This document shows positions 1,919 through 58,715 of a stretch of DNA of 64,000 nt, piece after piece. Location of the stretch: contig CAYNGD010000003.1 in assembly GCA_964396965.1 (NCBI GenBank), positions 106 through 64,105 of the forward strand, in the 5' to 3' direction. Every line of letters begins with the position of its first letter. Positions within the stretch are counted from its first letter, which is position 1. This DNA comes from an uncultured Dehalococcoidales bacterium. GTDB taxonomy: Bacteria; Chloroflexota; Dehalococcoidia; Dehalococcoidales; BS750m-G39. The notes below the pieces were generated by a model that was given only the letters and a program-made list of their open reading frames with translations, was not told where the DNA came from and did no database searches. The translations under genes were made by a program, and so were the position numbers.

Positions 1919-2062
1919 ATCTTCCCATATCCGCCCGCCCAAAGAGGTTTCACCTCTTTACATTTCTATTCCCCGCCCCAAGAGGGGTTAATTCCCCTTC
2001 TCCCCCCCAAGAAGAAATTGATAGAAGTAGCACTTCTGTAGGGTGGGTTTGGGTGGGAAGTA
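1919..2062. repeat. Intergenic inverted-repeat element, copy E1
   Basis: CTTCCCATATCCGCCCGCCC at 1921-1940 and GGGTGGGTTTGGGTGGGAAG at 2041-2060; shares AGGTTTCACCTCTTTAC and CTTCTGTAGGG with copy E5. Confidence 0.8.
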
Positions 2063-2123
2063 AGCCCAAAGCGTTTGAGCACCCCCTATGGCTGTGTTAT
2101 AATTCCATCGTAAGGATAACGTT

Positions 2124-3194
2124 ATGTGGGATAGACTAGACCAGATAGAGAAGCGCTACCAGGAGCTTGACCGCCAGATGGCCCGGCCGGAGCTGGCCAC
2201 CGACCTCAAGCGGCTGCAAACGCTGGCCCAGGAGAAGGCGGAGATTGAAGACCTGGTGATCAAATACTGGGCCTACCGGGCTACCGCCAGGGAGCTGGAG
2301 GAAACAAAAGGGATGCTGGACAGCGCCCTGGACGAAGAGATGGGTCGGATGGTCAGGCAGGAGATAGAGAAGCTGGAGGCGAAGCGGCAGCGCCAGCTTG
2401 ACGGGCTTAAGACCGCCCTGGCACCCAAGGACGCCAACGACGACAAGGATATCATCATGGAGATAAGGGCCGGCACCGGCGGCGACGAGGCCGGTCTCTT
2501 TGCCGCCGACCTCTTCAGAATGTACAGCCGCTATGCTCAGGACAAGGGCTGGGCGGTGGATATAATCGACAGCAACGAGAGCGGCATCGGCGGCTTTAAG
2601 GAGATTATCTTTGAGATAAAGGGGAGGGGCGCTTTCAGCCGCCTCAAGTATGAGAGGGGGGTGCACCGGGTGCAGCGGGTGCCGGTCACCGAGTCCTCGG
2701 GGCGTATCCACACCTCGACGGCCACCGTGGCCGTCCTCCCCGAGGCCGACGAGGTTGATATTGACATCAACCCCGAAGACCTCAGGGTCGACATCTTTCA
2801 CAGCGGCGGGGCGGGGGGCCAGAACGTCAACAAGGTAGCCACCGCCGTCCGCATCACCCACCTGCCCACCGGCATCGTCAGCACCTGCCAGGACGAGCGC
2901 TCCCAGCTCCGGAACCGGAGGAAGGCGATGGCGGTACTCCGCGCCCGCCTGCTGGATATAGAGCGGAGCAGGCAGGAGGAGGCAATAACCCAGCAGCGCC
3001 GCTCCCAGGTGGGAGGTGGCAAGCGCGCCGAGAAGATAAGGACCTATAACTTCCCCCAGGACCGCGTCTCCGACCACCGCCTCGGCCAGAGCTTCCGCAG
3101 CCTGCCCCGCATCCTTGATGGCGACCTCGACCCGCTTATAGATGCCCTGGCCTCAAGCGAGCAGGCCAGACAGATGGAGGAGCAGCCGGCTTGA
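2124..3194 (+). CDS. prfA: Peptide chain release factor 1
   Basis: GGQ motif, PVT anticodon-like tripeptide, EIRAGTGGDEA; upstream of prmC. Confidence 0.97.
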   Translation: MWDRLDQIEKRYQELDRQMARPELATDLKRLQTLAQEKAEIEDLVIKYWAYRATARELEETKGMLDSALDEEMGRMVRQEIEKLEAKRQRQLDGLKTALAPKDANDDKDIIMEIRAGTGGDEAGLFAADLFRMYSRYAQDKGWAVDIIDSNESGIGGFKEIIFEIKGRGAFSRLKYERGVHRVQRVPVTESSGRIHTSTATVAVLPEADEVDIDINPEDLRVDIFHSGGAGGQNVNKVATAVRITHLPTGIVSTCQDERSQLRNRRKAMAVLRARLLDIERSRQEEAITQQRRSQVGGGKRAEKIRTYNFPQDRVSDHRLGQSFRSLPRILDGDLDPLIDALASSEQARQMEEQPA

Positions 3195-4057
3195 CCCTGA
3201 AGCAGGCACTCCGCCGCGCCCGGGAGGTTCTCAGCCAGAACGGCGTTGAGGATGCCCCACTGGAGAGCGAGCTGCTGCTGCGCCATACCCTTAAGATAGA
3301 CCGGGTCCAGCTATATATTGACCTTGAAAAGGAACTGCCCCCCCGGCAGGAGCAGACTTTCCGCCGTTTATTAAAGCGCCGCTTGAACGGCGAGCCGGTG
3401 GCCTATATCACCGGCTACCGCGAGTTCTACGGGCTTGACTTCAGGGTTAACCGTAATGTCCTCATCCCCCGCCCCGAGAGCGAGCTTCTGGTGGAAAAAA
3501 CAATAGCTCTTGCTACAAACCACCCCTTACCGTTAATTGCCGACATCGGTACCGGCAGCGGGGCTATTGCTGTCAGCCTGGCGCTTGGCTTGCCCCGGGC
3601 CAAAATTTACGCCACCGATATCTCTGCCGCCACCCTTAAAATAGCCCGGCTCAACTGCCGCAGACACAGCGTGGCTGACAGGGTGCTTCTTTTAGAGGGC
3701 AACCTGCTGGAGCCGTTACCGGAGCCGGTTGACATTATCGTGGCTAACCTGCCCTACGTCCGTAAATCAGAGTTAAACCCGCAGTCAGAGCCGCCGCTGG
3801 CGCTGGACGGCGGTGCCGACGGGACGGAGATTATAGGAAGGCTCTGTCGGCAGGCGGAGGGCAGGCTTAAACCCGGCGGCTGGCTGCTGCTGGAGATAGG
3901 CCAGGGGCAGGGGGAGACGGTCGGGGATATTTTACATAACATATTACCCGATGGCAAGATAGATGTCTTCCCCGACTTGGCCGGCATCGAACGGGTAGTA
4001 TCCCTTAGCCTATGCACAAGCTCGGCTCAACTTGACAGGCAGTGCCTACACTGTTAA
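3191..4057 (+). CDS. prmC: Release factor glutamine methyltransferase
   Basis: DIGTGSG and ANLPY motifs; 4-bp overlap with prfA. Confidence 0.95.
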   Translation: MTLKQALRRAREVLSQNGVEDAPLESELLLRHTLKIDRVQLYIDLEKELPPRQEQTFRRLLKRRLNGEPVAYITGYREFYGLDFRVNRNVLIPRPESELLVEKTIALATNHPLPLIADIGTGSGAIAVSLALGLPRAKIYATDISAATLKIARLNCRRHSVADRVLLLEGNLLEPLPEPVDIIVANLPYVRKSELNPQSEPPLALDGGADGTEIIGRLCRQAEGRLKPGGWLLLEIGQGQGETVGDILHNILPDGKIDVFPDLAGIERVVSLSLCTSSAQLDRQCLHC

Positions 4058-4114
4058 ATTAGATAGTTAGTTTTCCCTAAATTTTAATGGTTAAACGGGA
4101 GGAATTGAGTCGTC

Positions 4115-4915
4115 ATGAACGTGGTTGTCTGCATCAAACAGGTGATTGACCCCGAGGCACCCCCCGCCAGCTTCAAGATCGACCCCGCCAGTAATAAAGT
4201 GGTGCCGCCGGCGGGGGTCTCGCCGGTGGTTGACCCCTACGCCGAATACGCCGTTGAGGCGGCGCTAAAGCTCAAGGATGCCGTGGGGGGCAAAATCACC
4301 GCCCTCAGCCTGGGCTCGAACCAGCTCCGGGACATTGTCAAGAAACCGCTGGCGATGGGGGCGGACGAGCTTATCCTGTTAGAGGATGAGGCCTTCGACG
4401 GGGGCGATAGCTGGTCAACCGCCTACGCCCTGGCCCTGGCCATCAAGAAGATAGGCGAGTATGATATTATCTTCTGCGGCCGTGAGGCCTCGGACTGGAA
4501 CGCCGGACAGGTGGGCTCGGGGATAGCCGAGATACTGGGGCTGCCCAGTGTCACCCTGGCCGAGAAGATAGACATCGCCGACGGCAAGGCCAAGGTGCAG
4601 CGCAAGACCGACGAGGGCTACGAGGTGGTTGAGGTGTCACTGCCCTGCCTGATTACCGTCAGCAACGAGATTGGCGAGCCCCGCTACCCCACCATAAAGG
4701 GGATTATGGCTGCCAAGAAGAAGGAGGCGGTGGTCTGGAAGCCGGCTGATATCGGTGTTGACCCCGCCAAGATAGGCGCTGGTGGCCGGCATACCAAGCT
4801 GCTCAAACTGTTCCAGCCGGTCAAAGAGGGCAAGTGCGAGATAGTCGAGGCGGAGAGCCCGGAGGAAGCGGCTGTGCTTCTGGCGGTAAAGTTGCGGGAG
4901 GTCAAGGTACTATAA
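4115..4915 (+). CDS. etfB: Electron transfer flavoprotein beta subunit
   Basis: VVCIKQV, LAMGAD, GQVGSGIAEILG, EPRYPTIKGIMAAKKK. Confidence 0.95.
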   Translation: MNVVVCIKQVIDPEAPPASFKIDPASNKVVPPAGVSPVVDPYAEYAVEAALKLKDAVGGKITALSLGSNQLRDIVKKPLAMGADELILLEDEAFDGGDSWSTAYALALAIKKIGEYDIIFCGREASDWNAGQVGSGIAEILGLPSVTLAEKIDIADGKAKVQRKTDEGYEVVEVSLPCLITVSNEIGEPRYPTIKGIMAAKKKEAVVWKPADIGVDPAKIGAGGRHTKLLKLFQPVKEGKCEIVEAESPEEAAVLLAVKLREVKVL

Positions 4916-15741: not shown

Positions 15742-16530
15742 TCAGCCAGCGCCCGCCGTTCCTATCAGTTCGGCGATAGTCTTATCGCCGCTTGTTTGGG
15801 GATAGAATTTCAGGCTGGTCCCCCAGTGCGGGTCGGGCCCTATACCGGCCACCGCTTCCCCTATCGTCATCTTTTGTGTACACAGGCTGGTGATGAGCTC
15901 GGCGGTGGCAGGGTCAACGTAGCCCAGGTCAACGCTGCCGTCCCAGCCCAGGTAGGCTGACGCTCCCTTCAGGGTAAAGGCGGCGGCCATATCGGTGTGG
16001 TAGGTACAGGAGCAGCCCATCATGATTATCACCGTGTTGTCGAAGCGCCCCTCCGTCTTTTCCAGGATGAACTTGGAGTTGACGGCGAAGACCAGGGGAA
16101 AGTCCGCCTCTATTTCCGCCGGCAGTAGCTGGTCGTCAAGCTGCTCGCGGACATAGCTGGACTGTTTGTATTCCTCAGCGGTGAACAGGTAGGTGTCCTG
16201 CTTTACCCCCACCACCTCCGAGCCCTCCTCCGCCTTGAGCAGCCCGGCGTGGGCGCGGAAGATTATCAGCTTATAGCCGTATTTGGGCAGCCTTTGGTAG
16301 AGCTTTACGCTGACCTCTTTGCCCGTGTAAACGTCCACCTTGAAGCCGGCGGCTTCGAGTTCGGCGGTGACTTGGTTGATGAAAGCCTGGTTCGGCTCTA
16401 AAACGGCCAGCTGGTCAACGATGGCGGCTTTGGGGCCTGAGTCGGGGTGGGGCTGGGGGCAGCCGGCGACTAGAATCAGCCCCGGCAGGACCAGAGCTAA
16501 CACCGCCAGGGCGATGAAGTAGCGCTTCAC
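15742..16530 (-). CDS. Hypothetical lipoprotein, possible caspase/gingipain-like fold
   Basis: Lipobox LVAGC; IIFRAHAG and IIMMGCS segments; AYLGW. Confidence 0.55.
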   Translation of the reverse strand: MKRYFIALAVLALVLPGLILVAGCPQPHPDSGPKAAIVDQLAVLEPNQAFINQVTAELEAAGFKVDVYTGKEVSVKLYQRLPKYGYKLIIFRAHAGLLKAEEGSEVVGVKQDTYLFTAEEYKQSSYVREQLDDQLLPAEIEADFPLVFAVNSKFILEKTEGRFDNTVIIMMGCSCTYHTDMAAAFTLKGASAYLGWDGSVDLGYVDPATAELITSLCTQKMTIGEAVAGIGPDPHWGTSLKFYPQTSGDKTIAELIGTAGAG

Positions 16531-18098
16531 AGTTTTTTGGGTCTATTGGCTCGCCTTATTAAAATCAAACAGCCGGCAGTTAAAGCCAGGAGGAGGGCGG
16601 CGCTTAAGATGAGCCAGGGCAGCAGCAGGGCTGCCTTATCTACGGGATAGACCGTACCCCCTACCGTTCCGCCAGACGGTGGGGGTGGCGGTGAAGTAGT
16701 CAGATGGAAGGCAACAGCGCCGCCGTTGGCTACCGCCCAGCCGCTGATGGCACCCCACTTGTCGGTGGACATCACCCGCCAGTAATAGTCACCGTCAGGG
16801 AGGGTCTGCCCCTCGCTGCCCGCAGTGTATGTCCCGCTCCCCTCGGCTTGTCCCACGGTGAAGCTGGCTGGCCCCTGGGCGAGCAGCTCCGAGGTGTAGT
16901 AGACTACCGGAGACGAGAAACCGGAGTCATTATCTATCTGGATGGTGTACTGGACGGTATCGTAGGTGTTAGGGTCGCTCTGGGTGAAGGTTAGTTCAGG
17001 GGTATTATCATTAACCGAGCTTCCGTCCACACATTCGGGTGGGCCCAGGTTGGTGGGGGTGTTGGGGGGGGCGTTGGCAAAGTATTCGTCGGCGCCGATG
17101 TCCACAATGGGTGAGGCGGCGTCCTCCCAGATGCGGGGGTCGCCCTCAAAGTCGGTGGTAAGCCAGCCCGGCACGGCGGCGTTGTCCCCGGCGTCAATGC
17201 AGGGGGAGGTGGCTTGGAGGTGGTAGTCGCCGCCGCCGACAAGTTGGGGGTCGGTGGTGAGACCGTTGCTTGATGTGCAGTTGACCAGGGTATTGCTGTA
17301 GATATCGTTGTAGTTAATGGTAAGGGTGGGGGTAAGACAGTATATTCCACTGCCGCTAGTTGCCGAGTTACTGGCAATGATGTTATTGGTAACGGTGGGT
17401 ACGGCTGAGCTGCCATCAACATAGATAGCGCCGCCGTTGCTGCCGGCCGTGTTGCTGACGATGGTGTTATTGATGATGGTGGGTTGGGAGGTGCTGCTGA
17501 TGTAGATGGCGCCGCCGTTGCTGGCGGCCGTGTTGCCAGTGATAATGCAGTTGGCGATGGTTGGGAAGGAGAGAGACCGGCAGCCGATGGCACCGCCGGT
17601 GCCGTAGGAGGTGTTGTTCTCGAAAACGCAATTAATTATCCTTGGTGAGGCGGGATTATTGATAATATAAATCCCGGCACCCCCGCTACCCGCTTCGTTG
17701 CCGGTGAAGATGCAGTTGCTCACCGTCGGCGAGCCGCCGTCGTCGTGCATCCCGCCGCCGAAGCTAGCCGCGCCGCCGGTGATGGTGAAGCCGTCGAGGG
17801 TGGTCGTCGAGTTAATGCTACCGACGTTAACCACCGAGGTAGAGCCGGTGCCCTGAATAGTGGTGGTGGCGGCCCCTGCCCCCAGCACCGATACCCCGTT
17901 TTTCAGGGTGATGTCCTCATTGTAGGTGCCGGCAGCCACATATATAGTATCTCCGGAGGAAGCAGCGGTAATGGCTGCTTGGATGGTGGTATAGTCACCC
18001 GGGACGTTGTAGCTTGCTCCCTGCGCTGGCAGTGCTATCACCAGGCTGAAGCTCAACACCAGCCCCAGGGCGAGCAGGATGCTCAGCAACCGCCTCAT
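16527..18098 (-). CDS. Secreted right-handed beta-helix (pectin lyase-like/DUF1565) surface protein with Ig/Fn3-like domain and C-terminal anchor
   Basis: Signal peptide, VPGDYTTIQAAI, repeated GGAIY/NNTIVSN, SPCIDAG, YYWRV, C-terminal TM with basic tail. Confidence 0.8.
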   Translation of the reverse strand: MRRLLSILLALGLVLSFSLVIALPAQGASYNVPGDYTTIQAAITAASSGDTIYVAAGTYNEDITLKNGVSVLGAGAATTTIQGTGSTSVVNVGSINSTTTLDGFTITGGAASFGGGMHDDGGSPTVSNCIFTGNEAGSGGAGIYIINNPASPRIINCVFENNTSYGTGGAIGCRSLSFPTIANCIITGNTAASNGGAIYISSTSQPTIINNTIVSNTAGSNGGAIYVDGSSAVPTVTNNIIASNSATSGSGIYCLTPTLTINYNDIYSNTLVNCTSSNGLTTDPQLVGGGDYHLQATSPCIDAGDNAAVPGWLTTDFEGDPRIWEDAASPIVDIGADEYFANAPPNTPTNLGPPECVDGSSVNDNTPELTFTQSDPNTYDTVQYTIQIDNDSGFSSPVVYYTSELLAQGPASFTVGQAEGSGTYTAGSEGQTLPDGDYYWRVMSTDKWGAISGWAVANGGAVAFHLTTSPPPPPSGGTVGGTVYPVDKAALLLPWLILSAALLLALTAGCLILIRRANRPKKL

Positions 18099-20049: not shown

Positions 20050-21024
20050 ATGCCGGCCAACCTGCCGCCGCAGTACTTTGACGCCGAGAAGAACTTCCGG
20101 GAGGCCAAAGACCCGCTGGAGAAGATAGCCGCCCTGGAGGAGATGCTGGCCATTATGCCCAAGCACAAGGGCACCGACCATCTCCGCGCCGAACTCAGGG
20201 GCCGGATTGCCAAGCTCAGCCAGCTGGCCGCCAAGAAGAGCGGCGCCCGGCGGGCTTCAATGGTCATCGAGAGGGAGGGGGCGGCCCAGGTGGCCGTGGT
20301 CGGCCTGCCCAACGCCGGCAAGTCCCGGCTTATCGCCGCCATCACCAACGCCTCCCCGTCCGTGGCCGAATACCCCTTCACCACCCACAGCGCCACTCCG
20401 GGGATGATGGAGTTCGAGAACATCAAGATACAGCTTATCGATACCCCGCCCCTGGCCCCCCAGACCATCGAGTTCTGGCTGCCGCCCCTGCTCCGGCGGG
20501 CAGACGCCCTGCTGGTCATGGTGGACTTAGGCCGTGACCCGCTGGAACAGATGGAATCCATTATTTCTCAACTGACGAAGATGCGAATACTGATAGAGGA
20601 CGCCGGGGCGGACTCGGAATTCACTATCTGGCACCAGAGGGCGCTTATTATCGGCAGCAAGCTTGACCTTGACGCCGCCGCCCCGAATTTTGAGACGCTC
20701 AGAGGTGAATATGGAGGCCGGTTCCCGGTTATCGCCATCTCCACTGAGCAGGGCACCGGTCTGGAAGAGCTCAAATCCAAAATATATGAGGTTTTGAATA
20801 TCATCCGGGTCTATACCAAGGCACCGGGGCAAAAGCCCGAATTTACCGACCCCATCGTCGTCCCCAGGGGCAGCACCCTGGCCGATGCCGCCGCCGAGGT
20901 GCACAAGGACTTCGCCGCCAATATGAAGTACGCCCGCATCTGGGGCTCGGGCAAGCACGACGGCGTTATGGCCAGGAGAGACCACGTCTTAGAAGACGGC
21001 GATATAATCGAGCTGCACCTTTAG
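20050..21024 (+). CDS. DRG/OBG-family GTPase with TGS domain
   Basis: MPANLPPQY, KHKGTDHL, GLPNAGKS, YPFTT, DTP, IRVYTKAPG, LEDGDIIELH. Confidence 0.9.
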   Translation: MPANLPPQYFDAEKNFREAKDPLEKIAALEEMLAIMPKHKGTDHLRAELRGRIAKLSQLAAKKSGARRASMVIEREGAAQVAVVGLPNAGKSRLIAAITNASPSVAEYPFTTHSATPGMMEFENIKIQLIDTPPLAPQTIEFWLPPLLRRADALLVMVDLGRDPLEQMESIISQLTKMRILIEDAGADSEFTIWHQRALIIGSKLDLDAAAPNFETLRGEYGGRFPVIAISTEQGTGLEELKSKIYEVLNIIRVYTKAPGQKPEFTDPIVVPRGSTLADAAAEVHKDFAANMKYARIWGSGKHDGVMARRDHVLEDGDIIELHL

Positions 21025-22198
21025 TCAGAGCAGCGAGGGCAGCTTCCTGGCCGCCGCCTCCATAGCCCTGGCCTTCTTTATGGCTTCCTCCCGCCGCTTC
21101 TTCACCCGGCGCACCAGTCCGCCAATGATGTCGTAGTAGCCTTTTACCCGCTCGATAGAGCTGAGACCGGAGAGCAGCAGCGTCACCCCCAGCCCCCCCC
21201 CGCCCCCGGGGATAGTCACAGCTCCTTATTACCGCTACCGGCGCCGCACCTTTGAGGAAGCCGCCCAGTTCCTGGAAGAGCTCCGGCCTCATCTCGGCGG
21301 CTGGCGCCGATACCAGGTAAAGCGCTCTGGCGGCATCCTCCGGACGGCAGTCAACCGCCAGCCGGCTCAGGGCTGCCTCCACCGCCGGAATGCCCGCCTG
21401 TCGCTCGGCGGCCCTGCTCCGGAAGCTGCGCCCAAGGCCGAAAAGCCCCCGCGAGGGTAGCGGCGACTGGCCGCAGCCGATGGCGCTCCAGCCGCTGAGC
21501 GTCTGCCTGATATTACCGAAGTCGGCCATGCTCGTTCCAATGTATCTGCTTTTTTCCTCCTCGCCGGCGCAGAGCAGGTCGTAGAAGGGCTCGACCATAA
21601 GCTCGTTGATTTTATCCGGCCTGTCCCTCAGGGCGGCTTCCCGGCTGACATAGCGCTGGTTATCGGCCACTAAGACGGCCTCGGCCACCGAGTGAATAGA
21701 CTTGAGTGATATGGCGGCGTTGTAGGTGAGGTGTTCCTCCTCGGCCTCCTCGTCCCGGAAGGGGAGAACGGCCAGGGCGTAGACCGGCTTGTCCTGGTAG
21801 CAGCCCTTCAAGTCCCGGGCTATTACCGGCATACCGCCAGAGCCGGTGCTGCCGATAACGCTGGCAATGAGCAGGAAGGCATCGGTCTCGAAGAGCCTGC
21901 CGGCGGCCCTTACCGCATCAAGGACTCGGCTGCTGTTTTCCGAGATAATCCCGGCGCCGATTTCGCTCATCCGCACCATCTCTTCACCGTTTGTCCGGGG
22001 GCTTTCGATGAGGATTCGGTGCCGGGGGTCGGGTTTTATAGCCCGCAGGCTTTCCAGGTCGGTCTGGTCAACGTCAACGGCCAAGGCGTCGGTGACTATC
22101 TCCAGCCCCCTTTTGCCCCTGGCTTTTTTGTTCAGACCGGCGAACTCTTGGGCAATCCTTCCCCCGCACCGCCCCACTCCGATGACCAGCAGTTTCAC
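21025..22198 (-). pseudogene. CetZ-like tubulin/FtsZ-family gene, frameshifted at a G9 run (21193-21201)
   Basis: KLLVIGVGRCGGRIA, STGSGG, VLPF, DNQ; CDYPRGRGG continues as LGVTLLLSGLSSIERVKGYY only in another frame; removing one G gives 390 aa ending at TGA 21025. Confidence 0.8.
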
Positions 22199-23640: not shown

Positions 23641-23662
23641 GAGGGGGCTTTTAAGCCCCCTC
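23641..23662. terminator. Hairpin downstream of SDR gene
   Basis: GAGGGGGCTT-TT-AAGCCCCCTC perfect 10-bp stem; no clear U-tract. Confidence 0.5.
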
Positions 23663-23699
23663 ATAACCCATTTCCCCATCCCGCTTTCATCCCAGCGTT

Positions 23700-23745
23700 T
23701 TGCGTCCCATACCCACCCACCCAAAGTGGCTTTGCCTCTCTTAGA
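23700..23745. repeat. Inverted-repeat element, left half only (E2)
   Basis: CCCATACCCACCCACCC at 23706-23722 followed by AAAGTGGCTTTGCCTCTCTTA; no G-tract partner. Confidence 0.7.
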
Positions 23746-23781
23746 GTCTTTTCACCCCCGAACCCCAGTGCCACCCCTACC

Positions 23782-23809
23782 TTGACACCCAGTATTTCAG
23801 TAGTATAAT
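23782..23809 (+). promoter_or_regulatory. Consensus sigma70 promoter of NYN gene (likely leaderless mRNA)
   Basis: TTGACA-16-TATAAT; ATG 23817 lies 7 nt after the -10 box; no SD. Confidence 0.75.
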
Positions 23810-25831: not shown

Positions 25832-25846
25832 AAAACTATTGCCCCT

Positions 25847-26095
25847 CCATTTTTAACCGGTATTTTGTTTCCTATACCCGCCCGCCCAAAAGGCTTTTTA
25901 CCCCAAAAAATCTCCGATTTTTCGGGGGCCCCGTGTTCGCCTCTTAGACTTTCTTTCCCCACCCCGCTGAGCAGTGACGATATCCCCTTCCCCCCTCCCT
26001 CTAGGGGGTTAGAGTTTACAATCCCTAGTTTGGGGTGGGGTAATGAAGTGCTAGAAGCACAGCTTATGAGGGTGGGAGGGCGGGAAAAATAACAA
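25847..26095. repeat. Inverted-repeat element E3 (first 143 bp nearly identical to E4)
   Basis: C-tract 25871-25887, G-tract GGGTGGGAGGGCGGG 26070-26084; about 10 mismatches to 26662-26804. Confidence 0.88.
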
Positions 26096-26130
26096 CCGTT
26101 GATAAAGGGTAATGGGGTGGCTAGAACCCC

Positions 26131-26626: not shown

Positions 26627-26661
26627 ATTATGGCTAGAAGCATTTGTCACAATCCCCACCC

Positions 26662-26902
26662 CCATTTTTAACCGGTGTTTTGTTTCCCATACCCACCCGC
26701 CCAAAAGGTTTTTTACCCCAAAAAATCTCCGATTTTTCGGGGGCCCTGTGTTCGCCTCTTATACTTTCTTTCCTCACCCCGCTAAACAGTGACGACATCC
26801 CCTTTTCTCCTACCCCAAAGGGGAGAAATTATCCTCGTTCCCCTTTTCAAGAGAATTTTAAAGGCGCAGCCTTTGAGGGTGGGAGGGTGGGAAGAAAAAC
26901 GA
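26662..26902. repeat. Inverted-repeat element E4
   Basis: CCCATACCCACCCGCCC 26686-26702; AAAGGCGCAGCCTTTGA then GGGTGGGAGGGTGGG 26877-26891 and AAGAAAAAC. Confidence 0.88.
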
Positions 26903-26974
26903 CTTCCGGCAGAGATAAAGGGATTTTTAAATAAATTGCTATTATAGCCTGAGAGTTATAGAATAAACGAGTAA

Positions 26975-29411: not shown

Positions 29412-29481
29412 CCTAATAATACTAGCTAAGAACCTTTCAAGGCACGTATCAGCTTTATTTAGCAGTTAAGCCGGATCCCAC

Positions 29482-29510: not shown

Positions 29511-29524
29511 ACACATAATTTAAA

Positions 29525-33115: not shown

Positions 33116-33143
33116 CCAAAGAGCCAGATAAGGAGGCAAAAAC

Positions 33144-35818: not shown

Positions 35819-35848
35819 TTGACAAATACCTATTGCATAAAATATAAT
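35819..35848 (+). promoter_or_regulatory. Sigma70 promoter of Fur-family gene
   Basis: TTGACA-18-TATAAT. Confidence 0.65.
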
Positions 35849-35864
35849 TGCAACTAGGTGCAAT
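35847..35864. promoter_or_regulatory. Putative Fur-family operator, copy 1
   Basis: ATTGCAACTAGGTGCAAT, one mismatch to the palindrome at 36315. Confidence 0.75.
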
Positions 35865-35868
35865 AACC

Positions 35869-36282: not shown

Positions 36283-36314
36283 CTGAAGGGTACAGATTAT
36301 TTTTTTGCTCTTGT

Positions 36315-36332
36315 ATTGCAACTAGTTGCAAT
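36315..36332. promoter_or_regulatory. Putative Fur-family operator, copy 2 (perfect palindrome)
   Basis: ATTGCAACT-AGTTGCAAT upstream of the cbiM SD. Confidence 0.8.
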
Positions 36333-36359
36333 TAGAATAAGGAGGTAAAGGAGTATCAG

Positions 36360-39027: not shown

Positions 39028-39083
39028 GGAATATTACCAGAACGGAACCAACGATATAGATGTACTTAGTTATTGCCTGGCCT

Positions 39084-39319
39084 TCATGAATTCTCCACAC
39101 GTGATCTGCCCCCCAGCCATTTTTGATAGCCGGTGATAATCTGCTGATAGCGCTCGATAGTTTTGGGGTCCCGGTCGCTTTGCGCTAGCTCCTGTGATAT
39201 AATTCGAAAGGGTCTGCCATATCAAGGCAATTGTAGTGCATGCCAGCTGGCATACTGTGCACAAGCTGAAAAGCGATACTTTTGGCAATTGCCTGAATTT
39301 GGCTTTCGGTTAGTCTTGT
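39084..39319 (-). pseudogene. Decayed integrase-like fragment, int(C), N-terminal SAM-like domain
   Basis: TRLTESQIQAIAKSIAF...DPFELYH, 1-nt deletion, then QELAQSDRDPKTIERYQQIITGYQKWLGGR; catalytic domain absent. Confidence 0.6.
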
Positions 39320-39346
39320 AACTCGGCTTACAGGTTTACTTGGCCT
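39320..39346 (+). repeat. attR: displaced copy of rnpB 3' end
   Basis: AACTCGGCTTACAGGTTTACTTGGCCT, identical to 28436-28462. Confidence 0.93.
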
Positions 39347-39490
39347 GACTTTAAGGCAAAGAACTCTCTCCCGCCTCTACTTTTCTTTTATTGCGCCTAC
39401 CGTAGTGTCAACATCATTGACAATATTCATCAATATGATTTAAACTATTAACAATTAGTCTATAGTTAATATAATGTTGGGGAAAAGGGA

Positions 39491-39949
39491 ATGATAATGG
39501 ACAAAGCAGAGTCAATTAAGGGAATTGTTGAACTGCAGCGGCAGGCAGGTCGGATTCTGGGGCAGTATGCCGCCAGTGTCTGGCTTGATTCGGGCCTTAC
39601 CCTGGCCCAGCTCAGAAGCCTGTTCTTGATTACTAAAAAGGGAACTACCAACTTTAGGAAGCTGGCAGAAGCTTTGGGAGTCACCCCCGCCGGCGTTACC
39701 CGCATTGTTGACCGCCTGGTGGAGCAGGGGCTGGTCAGCCGGAGGGAGGACCCCAGTGACCGCCGCATGATGGTATTGCAGCCAACGGTTAAGGGGCAAA
39801 CCATCATAGCTAACCTCAGGGAGAGCGGCATAAATCAAATGACCCGGATACTGACGCTTCTCAGCCTGGAAGAGCTTGATGCTCTGTCTCAAGGGCTTTC
39901 CGCGTTTATAAGGGCGGCCAAAACCTACCAGGGAGAGACTCATCCATGA
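39491..39949 (+). CDS. MarR family regulator
   Basis: LTLAQLRSL, VTRIVDRLVEQGLVSRREDPSDRR. Confidence 0.92.
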   Translation: MIMDKAESIKGIVELQRQAGRILGQYAASVWLDSGLTLAQLRSLFLITKKGTTNFRKLAEALGVTPAGVTRIVDRLVEQGLVSRREDPSDRRMMVLQPTVKGQTIIANLRESGINQMTRILTLLSLEELDALSQGLSAFIRAAKTYQGETHP

Positions 39950-40950
39950 ATATGATTGAAGTGGAGGGGCTGACCAAGCGCTTTGGTGAATTCACGGCGG
40001 TGGATCATGTCTCTTTTCAGGTTGAAAAGAGCGAGATACTCGGCTTCCTCGGCCCCAATGGAGCCGGCAAATCGACAACATTACGCATGCTCTGCACCCT
40101 GCTGCGGCCAACAGAAGGCAGCGCCAGGGTAGCCGGTTTTGATATCGCCAGTGAACCGGACAAGGTGAGAGGACACATCGGGCTGGTGGCTGAGAAGCTC
40201 ATCCTTTACGACCAGCTGACCGCTGAGGAGAACCTTACCCTTTTCGGCAGGCTGAACAACCTGCCCGAAGCGCAAATCAGACAGGGAATAGATAAGTGGC
40301 TTGGCCGTCTCCATATGGAGGCATGGCGCAAGTATAAGGTAGGGGCATTTTCAACAGGCATGAAGCAGCGGATAAACGTTGCCCGCGCCCTTCTCCATCA
40401 CCCCGACGTCCTCTTCCTTGACGAGCCTACCCTGGGACTCGACCCGCAGACGACCAGGGCCATTCACGAATTTATTATCGAACTGGGCCAGGAAGGCATC
40501 ACCACCGTGCTCACCACTCATGACATGGTTGAAGCCGGGGCTCTCTGTCATCGCATCGCCATTATTGACCGGGCCAAGATAGTTGCCCTTGATACCACCG
40601 GTAATTTGAAGCGGCTGGTCTCTAACGGCGATACGACGGTAGTTGATATGGAAATCTCCAACCTTAGCCAGTCGATGCTCTCTCAGATGAAGGATGTGGA
40701 GGCGGTTGTCTCCGTAGCGCAAACTGATTCGTACCGGGTGAGAATCAACATCAAGGGTAGCGATGCGGTCGGCCGGATTGTGAGCGCTGTCGTCGCTGGT
40801 GGGGGTAATATCCGGGCGATAAACACGGCGGAACCGAGCCTGCAGGATGTCTTCCTGTATCTTACCGGGCGTGAGATGCGCGACCAGGCGACTGAGAGGG
40901 TTCCTTCAGTTCGGGGACGCCGCTGGCGAAGAACCTCAAGAGTGAGATAA
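39946..40950 (+). CDS. ABC exporter ATP-binding protein (DrrA-like)
   Basis: GPNGAGKST, FSTGMKQR, LDEPTLGLDP, PSLQDVFLYLTG. Confidence 0.92.
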   Translation: MNMIEVEGLTKRFGEFTAVDHVSFQVEKSEILGFLGPNGAGKSTTLRMLCTLLRPTEGSARVAGFDIASEPDKVRGHIGLVAEKLILYDQLTAEENLTLFGRLNNLPEAQIRQGIDKWLGRLHMEAWRKYKVGAFSTGMKQRINVARALLHHPDVLFLDEPTLGLDPQTTRAIHEFIIELGQEGITTVLTTHDMVEAGALCHRIAIIDRAKIVALDTTGNLKRLVSNGDTTVVDMEISNLSQSMLSQMKDVEAVVSVAQTDSYRVRINIKGSDAVGRIVSAVVAGGGNIRAINTAEPSLQDVFLYLTGREMRDQATERVPSVRGRRWRRTSRVR

Positions 40951-40958
40951 TAAAGAAG

Positions 40959-42155
40959 GTGATTGGTATGCTTGGTGATTTCAGAAGGGTGGTCATGCAT
41001 AGCCTCCGCCTCGGAATTAAAGACCTTTTGGTCTTCGCCCGTGACCGGATGATGCTTATCTCCTTTATAATCATGCCTATCTTCATGATGATAATGATGG
41101 GCTTTATCTTCCCGTCACAGAACGTTTTGAAGAATGCCCCGTTGGGCATCGTCAATCTCGACGAGGGCCCGCTCGGTGCCCAGATAAATTCGGCAGTCCA
41201 GCAGCTAAACCGGCAGCAGAGTGAACGGATGTTCGCCATAACCTATCTCCGCAGCAAGGGCATGGCCATAGAACAGATAAAGGAGCAGATGATAAATGGC
41301 GCCATAATTATCCCTGCCGACTTCTCGGCCAAGATAGCCGATGGCGAGCAGGCCTCGGTTATTATCATCACCGACCAGTCCAACCCCCAGGTATCGGCGG
41401 GTATCACCGGGGTACTGGACGCGCTCATGTCCACCACGGCCAGCCAGCTGGCCGCCAAGAACGTAGCCGCCCTGGTGCCGGGTGTGAGCGACCCGCAGTC
41501 GCTGGTTATGCCGTTTACGGTAGAGACCGAGGGCACCGTTCCGGGCAAGCCCAACTATTTCGAGTTCATCGCTCCCGGCCTGATGGCAATGGTCATCATG
41601 TTTGCCGCTATGACCGGCCTGGCGGCTTCCATATCGAGAGAACGCGAACTGGGTACCCTGGATGGCATCCTGTCAGCTCCCATTAGCCGGCTTTCTATCG
41701 TGCTGGGCAAGAGCTTCGCCCAGGTGGTGCGCGGACTGCTGCAGGCCATGCTCGCCCTGATTCTGGCTATAGTGCTCTTTGGTGTCGTCGTTCACGGCAG
41801 CTACGCCCTGCTGTTTTTACTACTGTTGCTGACCGTATTCTCTTTTATCGGCATCGGCATCATAATATCGGCGCTGGCTTCGGAACAGGAGACCGCCATG
41901 ACGATAATGATGACCATCACCTTTCCCATGCTCTTTCTTTCCGGTGCCCTCTTTCCCATTCAACAGATGCCGACCGCTGTCCAGGCTGTTTCTAAGTTTC
42001 TGCCGCTGACCTATGCGGTTAACGCCCTGCGCAAGTGCATCGTGCTCGGCACCGGCATCACCGGGATGATGACGGAGGTCTGGGTGATGCTCGGTTTCGG
42101 CATTGTTTTTACGGTGATCGCAATACCTGTGTTCAATCGGATTATTAGCCGGTAA
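40959..42155 (+). CDS. ABC-2 type permease
   Basis: ERELGTLDGIL, PMLFLSGALFPI, PLTYAVNALR. Confidence 0.9.
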   Translation: MIGMLGDFRRVVMHSLRLGIKDLLVFARDRMMLISFIIMPIFMMIMMGFIFPSQNVLKNAPLGIVNLDEGPLGAQINSAVQQLNRQQSERMFAITYLRSKGMAIEQIKEQMINGAIIIPADFSAKIADGEQASVIIITDQSNPQVSAGITGVLDALMSTTASQLAAKNVAALVPGVSDPQSLVMPFTVETEGTVPGKPNYFEFIAPGLMAMVIMFAAMTGLAASISRERELGTLDGILSAPISRLSIVLGKSFAQVVRGLLQAMLALILAIVLFGVVVHGSYALLFLLLLLTVFSFIGIGIIISALASEQETAMTIMMTITFPMLFLSGALFPIQQMPTAVQAVSKFLPLTYAVNALRKCIVLGTGITGMMTEVWVMLGFGIVFTVIAIPVFNRIISR

Positions 42156-42190
42156 CAGACTCAAGGCATAACAGTTGGAGGAACTAACCG

Positions 42191-43573
42191 ATGAAGAAAT
42201 TGTATTTCTGGCTGTCAATCATTTTGGCAATAACGCTGTTTGTGGGGACAGCCGCCCCGGCATCGGCCCGAGTCAAGGGGGAGCCTGACCTGCAGGCAAC
42301 GGTGGTCGGGAGTGGTGAGTTTCCGGTAGGGCAGGTGGGAGTGTTACAGATAATGCTCCAGAACAACGGGACTTTCTCCGGCGGGACGGAAGACCCGGAT
42401 GACCAGGTGATGGCGCTCGGCTACACCAATGCCTTGGGCGTTACCCTGGCACCGCCCTGCACCACCGCTATCAGTGTCACCGCTACTTTGGAATCGACCA
42501 GTCCATCAATTAAAGTCCTGAGCGGGCCCACGGCGGTTGGGACCCTGCCCCGCGGGATGACCACAGTGCAGCCAGTAACCTTTCAACTCCAGGTGGCTAA
42601 GAACGCCCAACCCGGGACCTACTCTCTCCAGGTGGAACTTAAATATCAGTACCTGCAAAACGTTAACTGGCTCAATCCGATACAGCTCGTCCCCGCCGGG
42701 CTGACGAGCTCATCCTACCAGCCTGAGTTTGCCTTCTACTGGGGGAACAAAGAACAGCAGGTGGAGATACCGATAACGGTTGTCGGCACCTATTTCTCGG
42801 TAGCGGTCACCCAGACAGAGGGCGTCAGGGTGGGGACAACCGGCGTTATAACGCTGGATATTCAGAACAGCGGGGGCGACGAGGCAGATGGGGTCACCGC
42901 TGAGGTAGTCCCCGGAGTCAATTTTTCTCCCCTCGGCCCGGCTAGTTTTCTGGGGGATATTCCCCGTGGTAGTTCGGTCACTACTCAATTTAAGGTGTCG
43001 GTCTCACCGAAGGCGATTGCCAAGGACTGTCCTCTGGATATCCTGATTAAGTATAAAGATGAGAAAAACATCCCCAGGCAGCTGCCGCTGACTGTCGGCG
43101 TGCCGGTGAAAGAAGAGGTGAAATTTGAGCTAGAGCCTACCAGGGTTGATGGTGGCAATCTTACCCCCGGGGCCGAAAAAATAATCGAAATTCCCATTGT
43201 TAATGCCAGCGATTCTGAGGTCAAGGATGCCACGGCCCGAATCAACATTGTCGACCCGTTTTCCACCGCCCCGTTTTCGACTACCGATGATACCGCCTAT
43301 ATCGGGACGCTCCAGCCGGGAGAAAGCGGCACGGCCAAGTTCAGGATAACCGTTGACACTGATGCCGTAGCCAAGGCATACACGCTGGAGGTGGAGGTCA
43401 AATACTGGGACTCTTTGGATAATTCCTATATCTCCCAGCCGATGAGGGCAGTGGTAACTGTGCAGCCGTCTTCTGGACTCTCGGTAACAACTATCGTTGT
43501 CATTTCCCTGGCGGCTGTGGTTGTCATCGGCATCATCTTCTACCTTATAAGAAGGGGCAGGAAAGCGGCGTGA
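42191..43573 (+). CDS. Secreted COG1361-like (S-layer-associated) Ig-repeat protein with C-terminal anchor
   Basis: Signal peptide, PGTYSLQVELKY, IGTLQPGES, C-terminal TM followed by RRGRK. Confidence 0.72.
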   Translation: MKKLYFWLSIILAITLFVGTAAPASARVKGEPDLQATVVGSGEFPVGQVGVLQIMLQNNGTFSGGTEDPDDQVMALGYTNALGVTLAPPCTTAISVTATLESTSPSIKVLSGPTAVGTLPRGMTTVQPVTFQLQVAKNAQPGTYSLQVELKYQYLQNVNWLNPIQLVPAGLTSSSYQPEFAFYWGNKEQQVEIPITVVGTYFSVAVTQTEGVRVGTTGVITLDIQNSGGDEADGVTAEVVPGVNFSPLGPASFLGDIPRGSSVTTQFKVSVSPKAIAKDCPLDILIKYKDEKNIPRQLPLTVGVPVKEEVKFELEPTRVDGGNLTPGAEKIIEIPIVNASDSEVKDATARINIVDPFSTAPFSTTDDTAYIGTLQPGESGTAKFRITVDTDAVAKAYTLEVEVKYWDSLDNSYISQPMRAVVTVQPSSGLSVTTIVVISLAAVVVIGIIFYLIRRGRKAA

Positions 43574-43669
43574 CCCTTAGCTGATGTCACTTTTGCTTGT
43601 TGCCGAATTTCCCCCTCTCGGCTATGATAACCCTGTCTGCCCAAGCGACTTTCAAGGAGAGTGAGTCTG

Positions 43670-44797: not shown

Positions 44798-44879
44798 TCC
44801 CCCACCCCGTTTTATGTCTTTTCCCGCCCGCCACCCTTTAAGGTAACGGGCTAAAGCCATTTTCACCCCGCCCACCCGC

Positions 44880-45085
44880 GTTTATTTTCCCATACCCTCC
44901 CTCCCAAAAAGGTTTCACCTCTTTACGTCACTTAACCCCCACCCCCTGAAGGGGACATTGATGGAAGTACAACTTCTGTAGGGAAGGGGGGTGGGAAGTA
45001 ATACAATCGCCAAAAATGGGAGTGGGGGGCAAGAAGTTTAAAGGCGTAGCCTTTGAGGGCGGGTTGGGTGGGAAGAAAAAACAAT
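44880..45085. repeat. Inverted-repeat element E5 (between convergent ctpA and elp3)
   Basis: CCCATACCCTCCCTCCC 44889-44905; internal GGGAAGGGGGGTGGG 44981-44995; AAAGGCGTAGCCTTTGA then GGGCGGGTTGGGTGGG 45057-45072. Confidence 0.85.
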
Positions 45086-46478: not shown

Positions 46479-46559
46479 GGTGTGCCATAAACAGTGTAGC
46501 AGATTTAATTTGTAAACAGAAACAGGGCATTTGAGGGAATGCCTCGCCCATATTATATC

Positions 46560-46708
46560 TATTCCCTCCCGGCCACCCTTATGTGGAAGGGGTTACGCTC
46601 CACCCATTAAGGGGGTGTAGTGTCTCCTATCTTGGGGTGGGGCAGCAAGTTTTAGAAGCGAAGCTTATACGGGTGGGTGGGTATGGGAAACAAAACATAG
46701 GTTAAAAA
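46560..46708. repeat. Inverted-repeat element E6 (between divergent elp3 and methyltransferase)
   Basis: GGGTGGGTGGGTATGGGAAACAAAAC 46671-46696 is nearly the reverse complement of the E4 left end; left arm degenerate. Confidence 0.78.
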
Positions 46709-47853: not shown

Positions 47854-47929
47854 GATAATCACCCCCTTGCTCACGGTGGGATAGAACTGCATTATAGCAA
47901 CTTATCCCCTTTTGCCCAAATTAGAGTTC

Positions 47930-48125
47930 GTTTATCGTCCCATACCCTCCCGCCCACAAGGGTTATACCCTTTTCACATTTCTTTACCCCGCCCCCCATA
48001 GGAGAGGTGTCAGTCCTTTTCCCGTGATGGAGAGAAATTATGCCTTTTTCTGGGGAAAATTATCCCACCTATTTTTAGGGGTGTTAAAGAAGTGAAACCT
48101 CTATAGGGTGGGAGGGTGGGTAGCC
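47930..48125. repeat. Inverted-repeat element E7 (between tandem GNAT genes)
   Basis: CCCATACCCTCCCGCCC 47939-47955; GGGTGGGAGGGTGGG 48106-48120; internal GAGAAATTA. Confidence 0.85.
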
Positions 48126-48163
48126 AAACTCACTCTAAAAAACAGGCGGTAAGGTTCCCCGGG

Positions 48164-57062: not shown

Positions 57063-57089
57063 AAGGGGGGTCTTTTAGAGGCCCCCCTT
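57063..57089. terminator. Hairpin between convergent SIMPL and queH genes, possible terminator
   Basis: AAGGGGGGTC-TTTTAGA-GGCCCCCCTT followed by ATTTT; right arm touches the queH stop codon. Confidence 0.55.
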
Positions 57090-57630
57090 ATTTTATGGTG
57101 AAGTTGGCGTAGCGCTCCCACTCGCTGTAAACGCAGCCGCAGTACTGCTGGCGGTAGAGCTCCAGGGGCTTGGTGATATGGCGGCTGTCCGAGTAGCGCT
57201 TGCGCAGGTCGGCGTAGAGGAAGTCAACCCCGCTTTCTCTGGCTATTTCTTCGCTGACCTCTCTAATCAGCTCGTGCTTCTGCTGGGGGCTGATGAGCAG
57301 GCTGGTGGTGAAGGCGTCAAAGCCCTTCTCTCCGGCGATTTCGGCCGTCTTGGAAAGCCTCAGCCTAAAGCAATACTGGCAGCGCTCGGCCTCATGCCCC
57401 ACCACCCCCCGGAAGTAGTCAATGATGTCGTAGACGCTGGTCATTATCAGCGGCAGGCCCATCTTTTCGGCCAGGGACTGCATTGCCTCAAGGCGGTGCA
57501 GGTGCTCGGTGTAGGGGTGGATGTTGGGGTTGTACCAGAGGGCGCTGACGTCATATCCCTGCCCCCGCCAGTATTCGAGGGTGTAGGCGGCGCAGTGGGC
57601 ACAGCAGCAGTGGACGAGGAGTTTTTTCAT
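57088..57630 (-). CDS. queH: Epoxyqueuosine reductase QueH
   Basis: HCCCAHC, YNPNIHP, RCQYCFRLRL, YRQQYCGC. Confidence 0.93.
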   Translation of the reverse strand: MKKLLVHCCCAHCAAYTLEYWRGQGYDVSALWYNPNIHPYTEHLHRLEAMQSLAEKMGLPLIMTSVYDIIDYFRGVVGHEAERCQYCFRLRLSKTAEIAGEKGFDAFTTSLLISPQQKHELIREVSEEIARESGVDFLYADLRKRYSDSRHITKPLELYRQQYCGCVYSEWERYANFTIK

Positions 57631-57632
57631 TT

Positions 57633-57842
57633 CTATTCCTCCTGGTACTCAAAAACCTCTTCTAGGGATACCCCGAAGGCCCGGGCAATCCTGAAGGCCA
57701 GCTCAATGGACGGCACATACTTGCCCTGCTCCAGGGCGATGATGGTCTGGCGCGTGCAGCCGGCGCGCTGGGCCAGCTCCTCCTGGGTCATCTCGCCGTG
57801 GTCGAAGCGCAGCCGGCGTATCTGGTTGTTTATCCTAGCCAT
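57633..57842 (-). CDS. XRE-family HTH regulator
   Basis: [26 protein letters not shown]. Confidence 0.9.
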
Positions 57843-58272
57843 ACCTGTTGGCTCTCCAGTAGCCGATAGCTATGCCCAGGCACTGCGCCAGCGTGCTGAC
57901 AATCAGGATGGACATGAATATTACGTAGAGATAGACGGCGGGTATGAGGCCGGTGTCCTGGTAGACCTCGTTGAGGGCGATGACCCAGGCCACCAGCGTG
58001 AAGATGACCGCCAGCCACTGGATGCGGGGCGCCCGTTCTACTATTCGGATGTCTCTTTCATCGACAATCTTTGGGTTACGTAACGGGATGTTGACGATGA
58101 CGCCATTGACGATGAGCGCCCCGATAAGTAGGGCGTCTATGATTAACCTGAAGGTCTGGTCGGCATCGAAGGTCCGGATGCCCCCCATCAGGACGAAGAC
58201 CAGCACGAAGGCGATAGCGAAAGCCAGCCCCACCCCCAGACCCCACCAGGCCCTTTTCTGCAACGGTGCCAT
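57835..58272 (-). CDS. Membrane protein (DUF2178-like) paired with XRE regulator
   Basis: Four TMs, IVDERD motif; SD GGAGG before ATG 58272. Confidence 0.7.
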
Positions 58273-58387
58273 ATTTCCTCCCTTCTCAGGTAATCTATAC
58301 AATACATATTGTAATGTATAAAATACTAAATGTCAAATATTTTTTACATCAGTTTGCAGAAACTCTCCCCCTTTCTAAATAGTGTTT

Positions 58388-58715
58388 AGCTTCCCATACC
58401 CGCCCGCCCAAAAAGGCTCCGCCTCTTTACCATCTCTTTACCCCCGCCCCCCAGAGGAGAGAAATTAACTTCCCTTTTCACTTAGAAAGGAGGGATTGAT
58501 GCCCCTTATTCCCCCACCCACTAACGAAAAATAGACTCCCAGACCTCGTAAAGCGGGGAATTGAGGGCGCTAACTCCTGTTGGGTGGGTTGGGGTGGTAA
58601 AAAGAACAACTGTTAAAGATGGGTGAGGGGGAATAAGAGAATTTTAGAGGCGAAGCCTTTGAGGTGGGTCAGGGTGGGAAGAAAAACGACTTAAGAATGG
58701 GTGGGTGGTTGGGGG
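58388..58715. repeat. Inverted-repeat element E8 (downstream of ruvB)
   Basis: CCCATACCCGCCCGCCC 58393-58409; G-tracts at 58582-58597, 58663-58678 and 58699-58715; AGAGGCGAAGCCTTTGA; GAGAAATTA. Confidence 0.85.

Follow-up and report, generated by a model that had tools for sequence, protein, structure and literature searches.

Eight repeat clusters in a Dehalococcoidales contig

We analysed a 64,000-nt stretch (the window) of contig CAYNGD010000003.1, assembly GCA_964396965.1, from an uncultured Dehalococcoidales bacterium of a sediment metagenome, in which eight intergenic clusters of repeats with G-quadruplex (G4) motifs lie between housekeeping genes. These clusters are probably members of a family of interspersed repeats, small, non-coding and modular, that is specific to one uncultured Dehalococcoidales clade and fills its intergenic DNA. 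Using a regular-expression scan of both strands of the window for (G3+N1-3)x4, we found canonical motifs on the + strand at 2041, 26070, 26877, 45057, 46671 and 48106, and the C-strand version at 23706, 26686, 44889, 47939 and 58393, which reproduces exactly the positions and sequences of all eleven motifs quoted in the initial annotation. The window holds 12 canonical loci, 11 of them within the eight clusters; the sole locus outside the repeats is a poly-C run (CCCCCAGCCCCCCCCCGCCCCC, 21186-21207) inside open reading frame (ORF) 20966..22198 (-), where its translation would be rich in glycine.

The canonical loci far exceed expectation, with 12 observed where 300 first-order Markov simulations gave 1.1 on average and never more than 5, and the left-end pattern CCCATACCCNCCCNCCCAAA with up to three mismatches matched 9 times in the window versus 0.16 expected. 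The suggested G4Hunter comparison gave a modest excess (82 regions at a score of at least 1.5, versus 56.6 ± 6.9 simulated) and discriminated poorly, because at a high GC content (57%) the score is too unspecific. That modest excess would agree with G- and C-runs being simply common in a 57% GC genome, but this compositional explanation is refuted, and left with practically no probability, by the counts of canonical loci and pattern matches and by the membership of the motifs in a repeat family with at least 153 aligned copies.

The repeating unit is a module of ~55-75 nt, described here on its C-rich strand, which runs from GTTTT(N)4-5TT through four C tracts, an A/T-rich linker of 4-7 nt and a hairpin to a T-rich tail; a C4-5NC4-5 block often follows this tail, and a TTTTTAA box and a second C block lie further out. 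Modules fall into three types:

Type A: C3-ATA-C3-N-C3-R-C3, then linker AAAA; loops 3-1-1; example tract sequence of ~25 nt, GGGCGGGCGGGTATGGG.
Type B: C3-A-C3-N1-3-C3-R-C3, then linker TACA, TCAA, TATA or TCAT; loops 1-(1-3)-1; example tract sequences of ~25 nt, GGGTGGGAGGGTGGG and GGGTGGGTCAGGGTGGG.
Type C: C3-R-C3-R-CC-R-C3, conserved as CCCRCCCRCCRCCC (3-3-2-3), with a conserved CC as third 'tract', which does not meet the canonical G4 motif; full layout GTTTTATATCTTTT-CCCRCCCRCCRCCC-TTTAAGG-[GGGCTAAAGCCC]-TTTTTA-CCCCACCCC; 37 copies by regular expression and 59 matches to the hidden Markov model profile; example tract sequence of ~25 nt, GGGYGGYGGGYGGG.

Profile searches with nhmmer identified 15 end modules in the window, three of which, in addition to those with canonical motifs, have a single broken tract each (1924, CCCATATCC; 25871, CCTATACCC; 58661, GGTGGGTCAGGGTGGG). 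The eight clusters, E1 to E8, and one decayed remnant are as follows:

1822..2072 (+), E1: fills the spacer that follows the stop at 1821; A module 1913-1967 (+), C block 1924-1940, one tract broken to TCC; B module 2013-2068 (-), G4 motif 2041-2057 on the + strand; both modules found by nhmmer.
23641..23748 (+), E2: GC hairpin module GAGGGGGCTTAAAAGCCCCCTC at 23641-23662; A module 23695-23748, C block 23706-23722, no B partner.
25832..26130 (+), E3: A module 25860-25914, first tract broken to CCT; B module 26046-26095 (-), G4 motif 26070-26084.
26654..26936 (+), E4: 283 nt, the only precisely bounded insert; outer C block 26654-26663; A module 26674-26729, C block 26686-26702; B module 26850-26902 (-), G4 motif 26877-26891.
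44807..45081 (+), E5: four-module mosaic C-A-B-B; C module 44807-44874 (+), CCCGCCCGCCACCC; A module 44878-44932 (+), C block 44889-44905; first B module 44954-45005 (-), GGGAAGGGGGGTGGG; second B module 45033-45081 (-), G4 motif 45057-45072.
46548..46697, E6: C module 46548-46610 (+), CCCTCCCGGCCACCC; inverted A module 46644-46697 (-), G4 motif 46671-46687 on the + strand.
47923..48131 (+), E7: A module 47928-47983, C block 47939-47955; B module 48081-48131 (-), G4 motif 48106-48120.
58362..58713 (+), E8: separates the ruvB stop from the next promoter; A module 58382-58437, C block 58393-58409; weak internal G block 58572-58609; B module 58636-58689 (-), one tract broken, GGTGGGTCAGGGTGGG.
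13..33 (+): decayed C-type remnant, CCATTTTATATCTTTTCCCGC, with most of the tract block lost; nhmmer match to the type C model at E = 7e-4.

Modules combine as mosaics, mostly as inverted A + B pairs, giving elements of 120-400 bp that contain no ORF. The inverted pairs span 119-401 bp with a mode near 125-140 bp; exactly one A module is found in 40 of the 44 pairs and two A modules in none of the 44, and on either strand the C-rich arm comes 5′ with the G4 motif in the 3′ arm. C+A, C+B and tandem arrangements are also present, and B modules collected via their hairpin often have a type C or other hairpin module, not an A module, as left partner. Among the clusters of the window, E3 and E4 are 89% identical over 165 nt, E1 has a DNA fold z-score of -3.9, and seven of the eight point the same way.

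The initial annotation had described the motifs as the ends of elements, facing their own complement. We found the tracts to be subterminal instead, as conserved sequence runs further outward (GTTTTTCTT, then ~5 nt, TTTTTAA and the C4-5NC4-5 block) and the precisely mapped E4 insert (26654-26936) begins 32 nt outside its C tracts. The facing complement held loosely, with arm complementarity over 30 nt of 59-65% in the window and a mean of 64% over 39 pairs, at a median distance between arms of ~106 nt; in the wider family, however, a canonical C-tract partner is often missing. Considered as terminal inverted repeats, the arms share a ~75-nt architecture but belong to distinct A and B types, and just 64% of positions agree over the 30 nt compared.

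Covarying hairpins and constrained tracts

The hairpin next to the tracts has a stem of 4-8 bp and usually a 3-nt loop, and was present in 75 of 76 A modules and 63 of 67 B modules (138/143 together). Hairpin scores of at least 10 were reached by 93-94% of modules versus 22-27% of shuffles. The loop-closing pair is C:G in 39 modules and U:A in 32, the other pairs alternate between A:U and G:C, and double compensatory changes occupied 77 cells versus 30.7 ± 6.6 in shuffles, a count that is mildly circular because the sequences were chosen by the hairpin finder, a filter that almost no module failed. Since the stems covary, the module appears to act in single-stranded form. At the 5′ foot of the hairpin GT[AG]G is absent, the linkers being those listed above for types A and B and TTTAAGG for type C.

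Other recurrent hairpin modules join the mosaics, such as CCCCCTCTCC..GGAGAGGGGG and AAAGAGGGGCnnnGCCCCTCTTAAAC, and were seen in the window at 23641-23662 and in loci L088 (3540-3640), L169, L172, L182, L190 and L196. In the sister lineage represented by L088 such hairpin modules lie 3′ of ruvB without C3-tract modules, so they may predate the tract block.

To persist, a lineage of copies has to keep the G3/C3 tracts, which are part of the module core, while the loops are free. For 84 modules outside the seed pattern, the tract columns were 94-99% C (not counting the second tract, whose alignment is blurred by the ATA indel), and two loop columns read A42/T37/G18 and A47/G48. Four tracts with 1-3 nt loops, where the canonical motif allows 1-7 nt, were kept in 82% of 76 non-seed modules, and the remaining ones had one substitution each, except for two copies cut at contig ends. 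Ascertainment bias was removed by collecting B modules via the neighbouring hairpin rather than via the tracts, and the contrast between kept tracts and varying loops, as initially described, persisted: 46 of these 53 modules were intact, and across the 636 tract bases of the sample we counted 5 substitutions (0.8%) and, in addition, 2 half-deletions, versus loop letters that differed in 33%, 37% and 11% of copies (T31/C15; A29/T6/TCA4 and others; T41/C4). The central loop of these modules ranged from 1 to 3 nt, and the nine bases after the tracts varied by 4-61% per site.

Pairing between the arms fails to explain this pattern because the two arms do not covary, which is the outcome of the comparison proposed in the initial annotation between avoidance of tracts and covariation of arms. 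Loop letters of the two arms agreed in only 15/44 and 17/44 pairs, total arm agreement (1178) was not above that for shuffled partners (1270 ± 21), and the broken tracts at 1924, 25871 and 58661 face intact partners with no compensation on the other arm. The outcome that the initial annotation had named as refuting, substitutions accounted for fully by pairing of the arms, thus did not occur. The long-term constraint on the tracts is thus part of a constrained module core. The proposed selection on structure stands as far as this constraint goes; a constraint specifically on the quadruplex does not follow from it, because other core positions are equally conserved, and selection could act on the G4 fold, on the C-rich strand or on recognition of the plain sequence.

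Single strands with G3N1-3 motifs form very stable parallel quadruplexes, and the A and B modules carry sequence predicted to fold in this way if single-stranded. With a G4 term included, ViennaRNA placed a quadruplex in the minimum free energy (MFE) structure of 9 of 14 element strands, with gains of 0-13 kcal/mol, so that in this model hairpin and G4 lie close to each other. Of the suggested switch between hairpin or cruciform and G4, the cruciform is implausible in duplex DNA because the arms are 64% complementary and ~100 nt apart, given what is known of cruciform extrusion; in the folding model, a choice between hairpin and G4 would plausibly be open only to single-stranded DNA or RNA.

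Lineage, distribution and turnover of copies

The RuvB protein of the window is 87% identical to that of Dehalococcoidales metagenome-assembled genomes (MAGs), and relatives of the window occur in marsh metagenomes. At the DNA level, 80-85% identity with the window was found for contigs from three MAGs, CSMAG_1231, CSMAG_2238 and bin.571 (loci L006, L007, L020-L023, L027, L029, L078, L083 and others), which were deposited as 'Deltaproteobacteria'; judged by this identity and by the same repeat family, those labels are probably wrong. In total, we counted 153 end modules in the window and 86 loci fetched by pattern, all from MAGs of the Dehalococcoidales lineage, and no pattern hit outside Dehalococcoidales matched the profile. 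A complete scan with the B hairpin (57 stretches) returned the same few MAGs and four chance matches, and none of 80 ruvB loci of relatives with 63-87% amino acid identity contained a module. No module match was found in the viral contigs searched, and a phage origin was rejected on that ground. Read depth over the modules was 15-50x that of the flanks. Many B copies lie within ~30 nt of contig ends (L170, L177, L181, L183, L197, L203, L206, L209, L210, L212 and others), indicating that the repeat family breaks short-read assemblies of this clade.

At intergenic sites, entire copies appear and disappear as units. The clearest case is E4, which has AAT on both sides (26651-26653 and 26934-26936) and an empty allele in marsh relatives (runs X3 and X4) that joins 26650/26653 to 26934/26936 with AAT once. 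Alternative alleles at the other sites were of several kinds: for E1, 76 nt replace 1822-2072 in a relative (run X6); for E3, 25810 is joined to 26147 with 14 nt between (run X4); and for E6, relatives in X3 skip 46505/46522-46739. E7 showed the widest range, from a near-empty allele (9 nt linking 47922 to 48126) through one with B only (47922 to 48086, 22 nt) and one with an 89-nt spacer to the full element. At the site orthologous to E8, L091 and L094 have just ~55 nt of spacer, unrelated in sequence. At the sites shared with L083 and L078, the elements were rearranged rather than point-mutated, which made substitution counts between orthologous copies impossible for these loci.

Several features of the neighbouring sequence were recorded alongside the repeats. 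E2 is followed by a perfect sigma-70 consensus at 23782-23809 (+; TTGACA-16-TATAAT, 12/12), just ahead of an NYN-domain gene (ORF start 23808). Near E8, which ends ~25 nt upstream of its -35 box, there is a promoter-like TTGACA-17-TACAAT at 58336-58308 (-), which, along with ~60 nt of surrounding sequence, is conserved in the repeat-free L091 and L094. A 116-amino acid ORF between E3 and E4 (26131-26481, -) is a real small gene, being far better conserved versus L083 than the flanking repeats. The + strand ORF 57178..58083 is probably spurious, as ORF content and homology in relatives point to three genes on the - strand: 57835..58302 (membrane protein), 57633..57842, whose small product looks by eye like an XRE-type helix-turn-helix regulator, and 57088..57630. 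Within the 523-amino acid ORF 16527..18098, four diverged tandem copies of a ~81-84-nt unit (17338-17652, -) suggest a repeat-containing protein. A block of ~15 kb with 46-55% GC (28466-43605), with no repeat module inside, starts right after the RNase P RNA gene (28116-28462) and encodes a periplasmic binding protein, a FecCD permease, an ABC ATPase, CbiM, Fur, an FmdE-like protein and YqeC; as L083 joins 28465 directly to 43606, this metal/cobalamin-type uptake block looks either inserted here as an island or deleted from the relative.

Mobilisation, possible roles and relation to known repeats

We looked for an enzyme that could move these repeats in the sampled loci, which total 716 kb and represent just a few percent of the genomes in question. 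Between inverted ends that lie far apart there is no transposase, the enclosed genes being housekeeping or toxin-antitoxin-like, and no multi-copy ORF occurs in 439 kb, as clustering of 574 ORFs gave only ABC ATPases, enoyl-CoA hydratases and orthologues. A tblastn search for Y1 transposases and REP-associated tyrosine transposases (RAYTs) gave no match below E = 0.5 in the 716 kb, although with two Y1 queries this is a weak test. An autonomous element was rejected on the grounds that the ends in the sampled loci enclose no transposase and that 439 kb contain no multi-copy ORF; integron attC sites, on the reversed polarity of the ends versus attC, the lack of cassette organisation and the housekeeping flanks; and CRISPR, on the lack of array organisation and the same flanks.

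The best-supported reading, and on balance the one we favour, is that of non-autonomous mosaic repeats resembling either the bacterial interspersed mosaic elements (BIMEs) built from repetitive extragenic palindromic (REP) sequences or miniature inverted-repeat transposable elements (MITEs). Mobilisation would most likely occur in trans, through a single-copy enzyme encoded elsewhere and acting on single-stranded DNA in which the small hairpin would be recognised, in the manner of REP/REPIN with RAYT or of hairpin-ended derivatives of the insertion sequences (IS) IS200/IS605. We infer this from the covarying stems, the asymmetry of A and B, the lack of a multi-copy ORF and the vertical, clade-restricted inheritance. 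Several observations weigh against this reading. Neither the mobilising enzyme nor an autonomous parent element was found in the sampled loci, the REP hallmark GTAG is absent, and a candidate target-site duplication was seen in one case (AAT at E4), which could be microhomology, the other sites not being clean. The termini are fuzzy, outer blocks sometimes persist at 'empty' sites, and global alignments of filled versus empty sites among MAGs were mostly too messy to define termini, so that some of the variation may reflect recombination or deletion between copies. In addition, as the loci were collected via pattern matches, copy-number and composition figures are biased, and a function at the RNA level, discussed below, retains a small probability.

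Comparison with described repeats shows a correspondence of organisation with REP, REPIN and BIME sequences of Enterobacteria and Pseudomonas, which are mobilised by single-copy RAYT transposases (PMC3116915, PMC3337134). Shared features are short extragenic units around a small hairpin with compensatory stem changes, two unit types in inverted pairs (as in BIME Y and Z), and mosaic clusters in tens to hundreds of copies that are clade-restricted and have no transposase beside them. In contrast, the repeats described here lack GTAG, have longer modules and pairs further apart (spacers of ~45-200 nt), carry a four-tract C3/G3 block per module, occur in Chloroflexota, and have no demonstrated RAYT in the sampled loci. 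We know of no described REP with a four-tract C3/G3 block. Like the MITEs of Neisseria (Correia/NEMIS) and enterobacteria (ERIC), they are small, non-coding and intergenic, show presence/absence polymorphism, can adjoin promoters and gene ends and have arms that may count as imperfect terminal inverted repeats, but their arms are only ~64% alike with distinct A and B types, they form a modular mosaic rather than a fixed unit, no parent IS was found in the sampled loci, and a single AAT case stands against the regular TA of Correia. Pneumococcal BOX elements (boxA-boxB-boxC) are likewise modular, intergenic, variable in module number and predicted to form stable secondary structure, yet their sequence is unrelated and has no G-tract block. 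Palindrome-associated elements (PATEs) derived from IS200/IS605 share distinct left and right ends, subterminal hairpins, the lack of long perfect inverted repeats and a plausible action on single-stranded DNA, whereas here no TnpA or TnpB was found in the sampled loci, the ends are inverted and no conserved cleavage tetranucleotide was established.

For the G4 motif itself, the motif at 45057 differs by one loop base from the Neisseria pilE recombination quadruplex, d(GGGTGGGTTGGGTGGG) (PMC10094033), as the initial annotation had observed, and the copies in L211 and L173 carry the pilE loops. These near-identical 16-nt motifs would be expected to belong to the same parallel short-loop class in vitro. 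However, the pilE motif is a single-copy site 5′ of an expressed antigen gene, tied to a dedicated small RNA promoter and, with silent donor cassettes, to pilin gene conversion, while ours is a multi-copy module beside a hairpin between housekeeping genes with no pilin-like cassette system seen; the likeness is one of sequence, not of system. The nearest report in the literature concerns G4-forming heptamer simple-sequence repeats in Xanthomonas and Nostoc (PMC4692102), also a G4-capable repeat enriched in particular bacterial lineages, although those heptamers are in tandem, whereas the modules here are dispersed, structured, ~60 nt long and exactly four-tracted. Literature searches turned up no account of such repeats in Dehalococcoidia, nor of bacterial MITEs that bear a G4.

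What the tract block does within the module is contested by two explanations. The block of CCCN/GGGN may be read as sequence, single- or double-stranded, by a mobilising enzyme or a host DNA- or RNA-binding protein, with G4 competence an unselected by-product, an account that we regard as possible though not the likely one. It agrees with the conservation of the entire module core rather than the tracts alone, with type C, which retains CCCR periodicity while losing the canonical G4 form, with the distinct oriented A and B ends, comparable to transposon left and right ends or BIME Y and Z units, and with C-strand loops that are nearly always purines, suggesting a (CCCR)n code; the B central loop of 1-3 nt and the ATA insertion of A are awkward for rigid recognition, though, and no candidate protein was found. 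Alternatively, the folded quadruplex in single-stranded DNA or RNA may itself be functional, recognised by an enzyme beside the hairpin or serving the host as a hairpin/G4 switch that acts on replication, recombination or transcripts, which we would advance only tentatively. Both A and B keep four G3 tracts despite different loop layouts (3-1-1 and 1-(1-3)-1), with a central loop length of 1 to 3 nt and loops that are mostly single pyrimidines on the G strand, and the low tract substitution relative to the loops (0.8% versus 11-37%), the G4 potential retained by tract-merging variants (G7 or G9 runs), the lack of covariation or compensation between arms, the covarying hairpin, which implies a single-stranded state in which G4 could form, and the quadruplex in 9 of 14 MFE structures all agree with it. 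Yet type C conserves the non-canonical 3-3-2-3 arrangement, a broken tract in 13-18% of A and B copies comes with no sign of removal, and GAAGAAAT before the B hairpin, GTTT, the linker A and the A that follows tract 1 show the same conservation as the tracts; moreover, a nearby C-rich arm or block competes for pairing, and there is no orientation bias versus genes or versus local GC skew. The specific proposal of 'hairpin + quadruplex' units, in which a mobilising enzyme would recognise the folded G4 or the repeats would be bistable host hairpin/G4 devices between genes, we consider doubtful.

A third explanation moves the function to RNA, where the repeats would be bidirectional terminators, insulators, Rho-loading (rut-like) sites or 3′ stabilisers, a polymerase arriving from either side transcribing first an arm rich in C and poor in G, and next a hairpin that ends in a U-rich tail; we think this role improbable. 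Either strand does present a C-rich 5′ arm, a small hairpin and a T-rich tail in that order, and E2 separates a gene end from a consensus promoter, as E8 does the ruvB stop from the promoter that comes next. However, the terminator scan flagged none of the end-module hairpins, whose stems are short and A/T-rich, and copies are dispensable in close relatives. Module-bearing spacers were 62% co-directional, 28% divergent and 10% convergent, versus 69%, 17% and 14% of module-free spacers; convergent spacers were thus not enriched and divergent ones somewhat enriched, and by these percentages modules neither avoid promoter regions nor prefer 3′ ends. The role in termination raised in the initial annotation accordingly gains no support from placement or from the terminator scan, and a terminator or insulator role was set aside on the consensus scan and spacer type. 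A role linked to orientation relative to replication was dropped as well, cluster orientation showing no association with local GC skew across loci. Among known RNA families and tRNA, nothing was found: with Rfam 15, only RNase P reached its gathering score in the window, and two clusters gave no credible match at E up to 5. No RNA runs containing the window region were found.

The favoured reading of non-autonomous mosaic repeats describes a family that was previously undescribed, of interspersed bacterial repeats with a conserved four-tract G3 block per module. It gives Chloroflexota, for which no such system appears to be on record, a mosaic repeat system of REP/BIME type, explains why MAGs of this clade break at these sites and offers strain-typing markers for sediment and marsh metagenomes. 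Evidence for selection on bacterial G4 motifs is thin and comes mostly from single loci, whereas this one repeat family offers dozens to hundreds of independent copies in which the four G3 tracts persist although the letters of the loops, and the length of one of them, drift, so that the question of whether a bacterial G4 motif is selected as a structure becomes directly testable with simple biophysics. Should the repeats depend on the quadruplex, which at present seems doubtful, they would be the first bacterial mobile-repeat family to rely on a G-quadruplex for propagation or function, and their hundreds of natural copies would form a mutational record of kept tracts and free loops.

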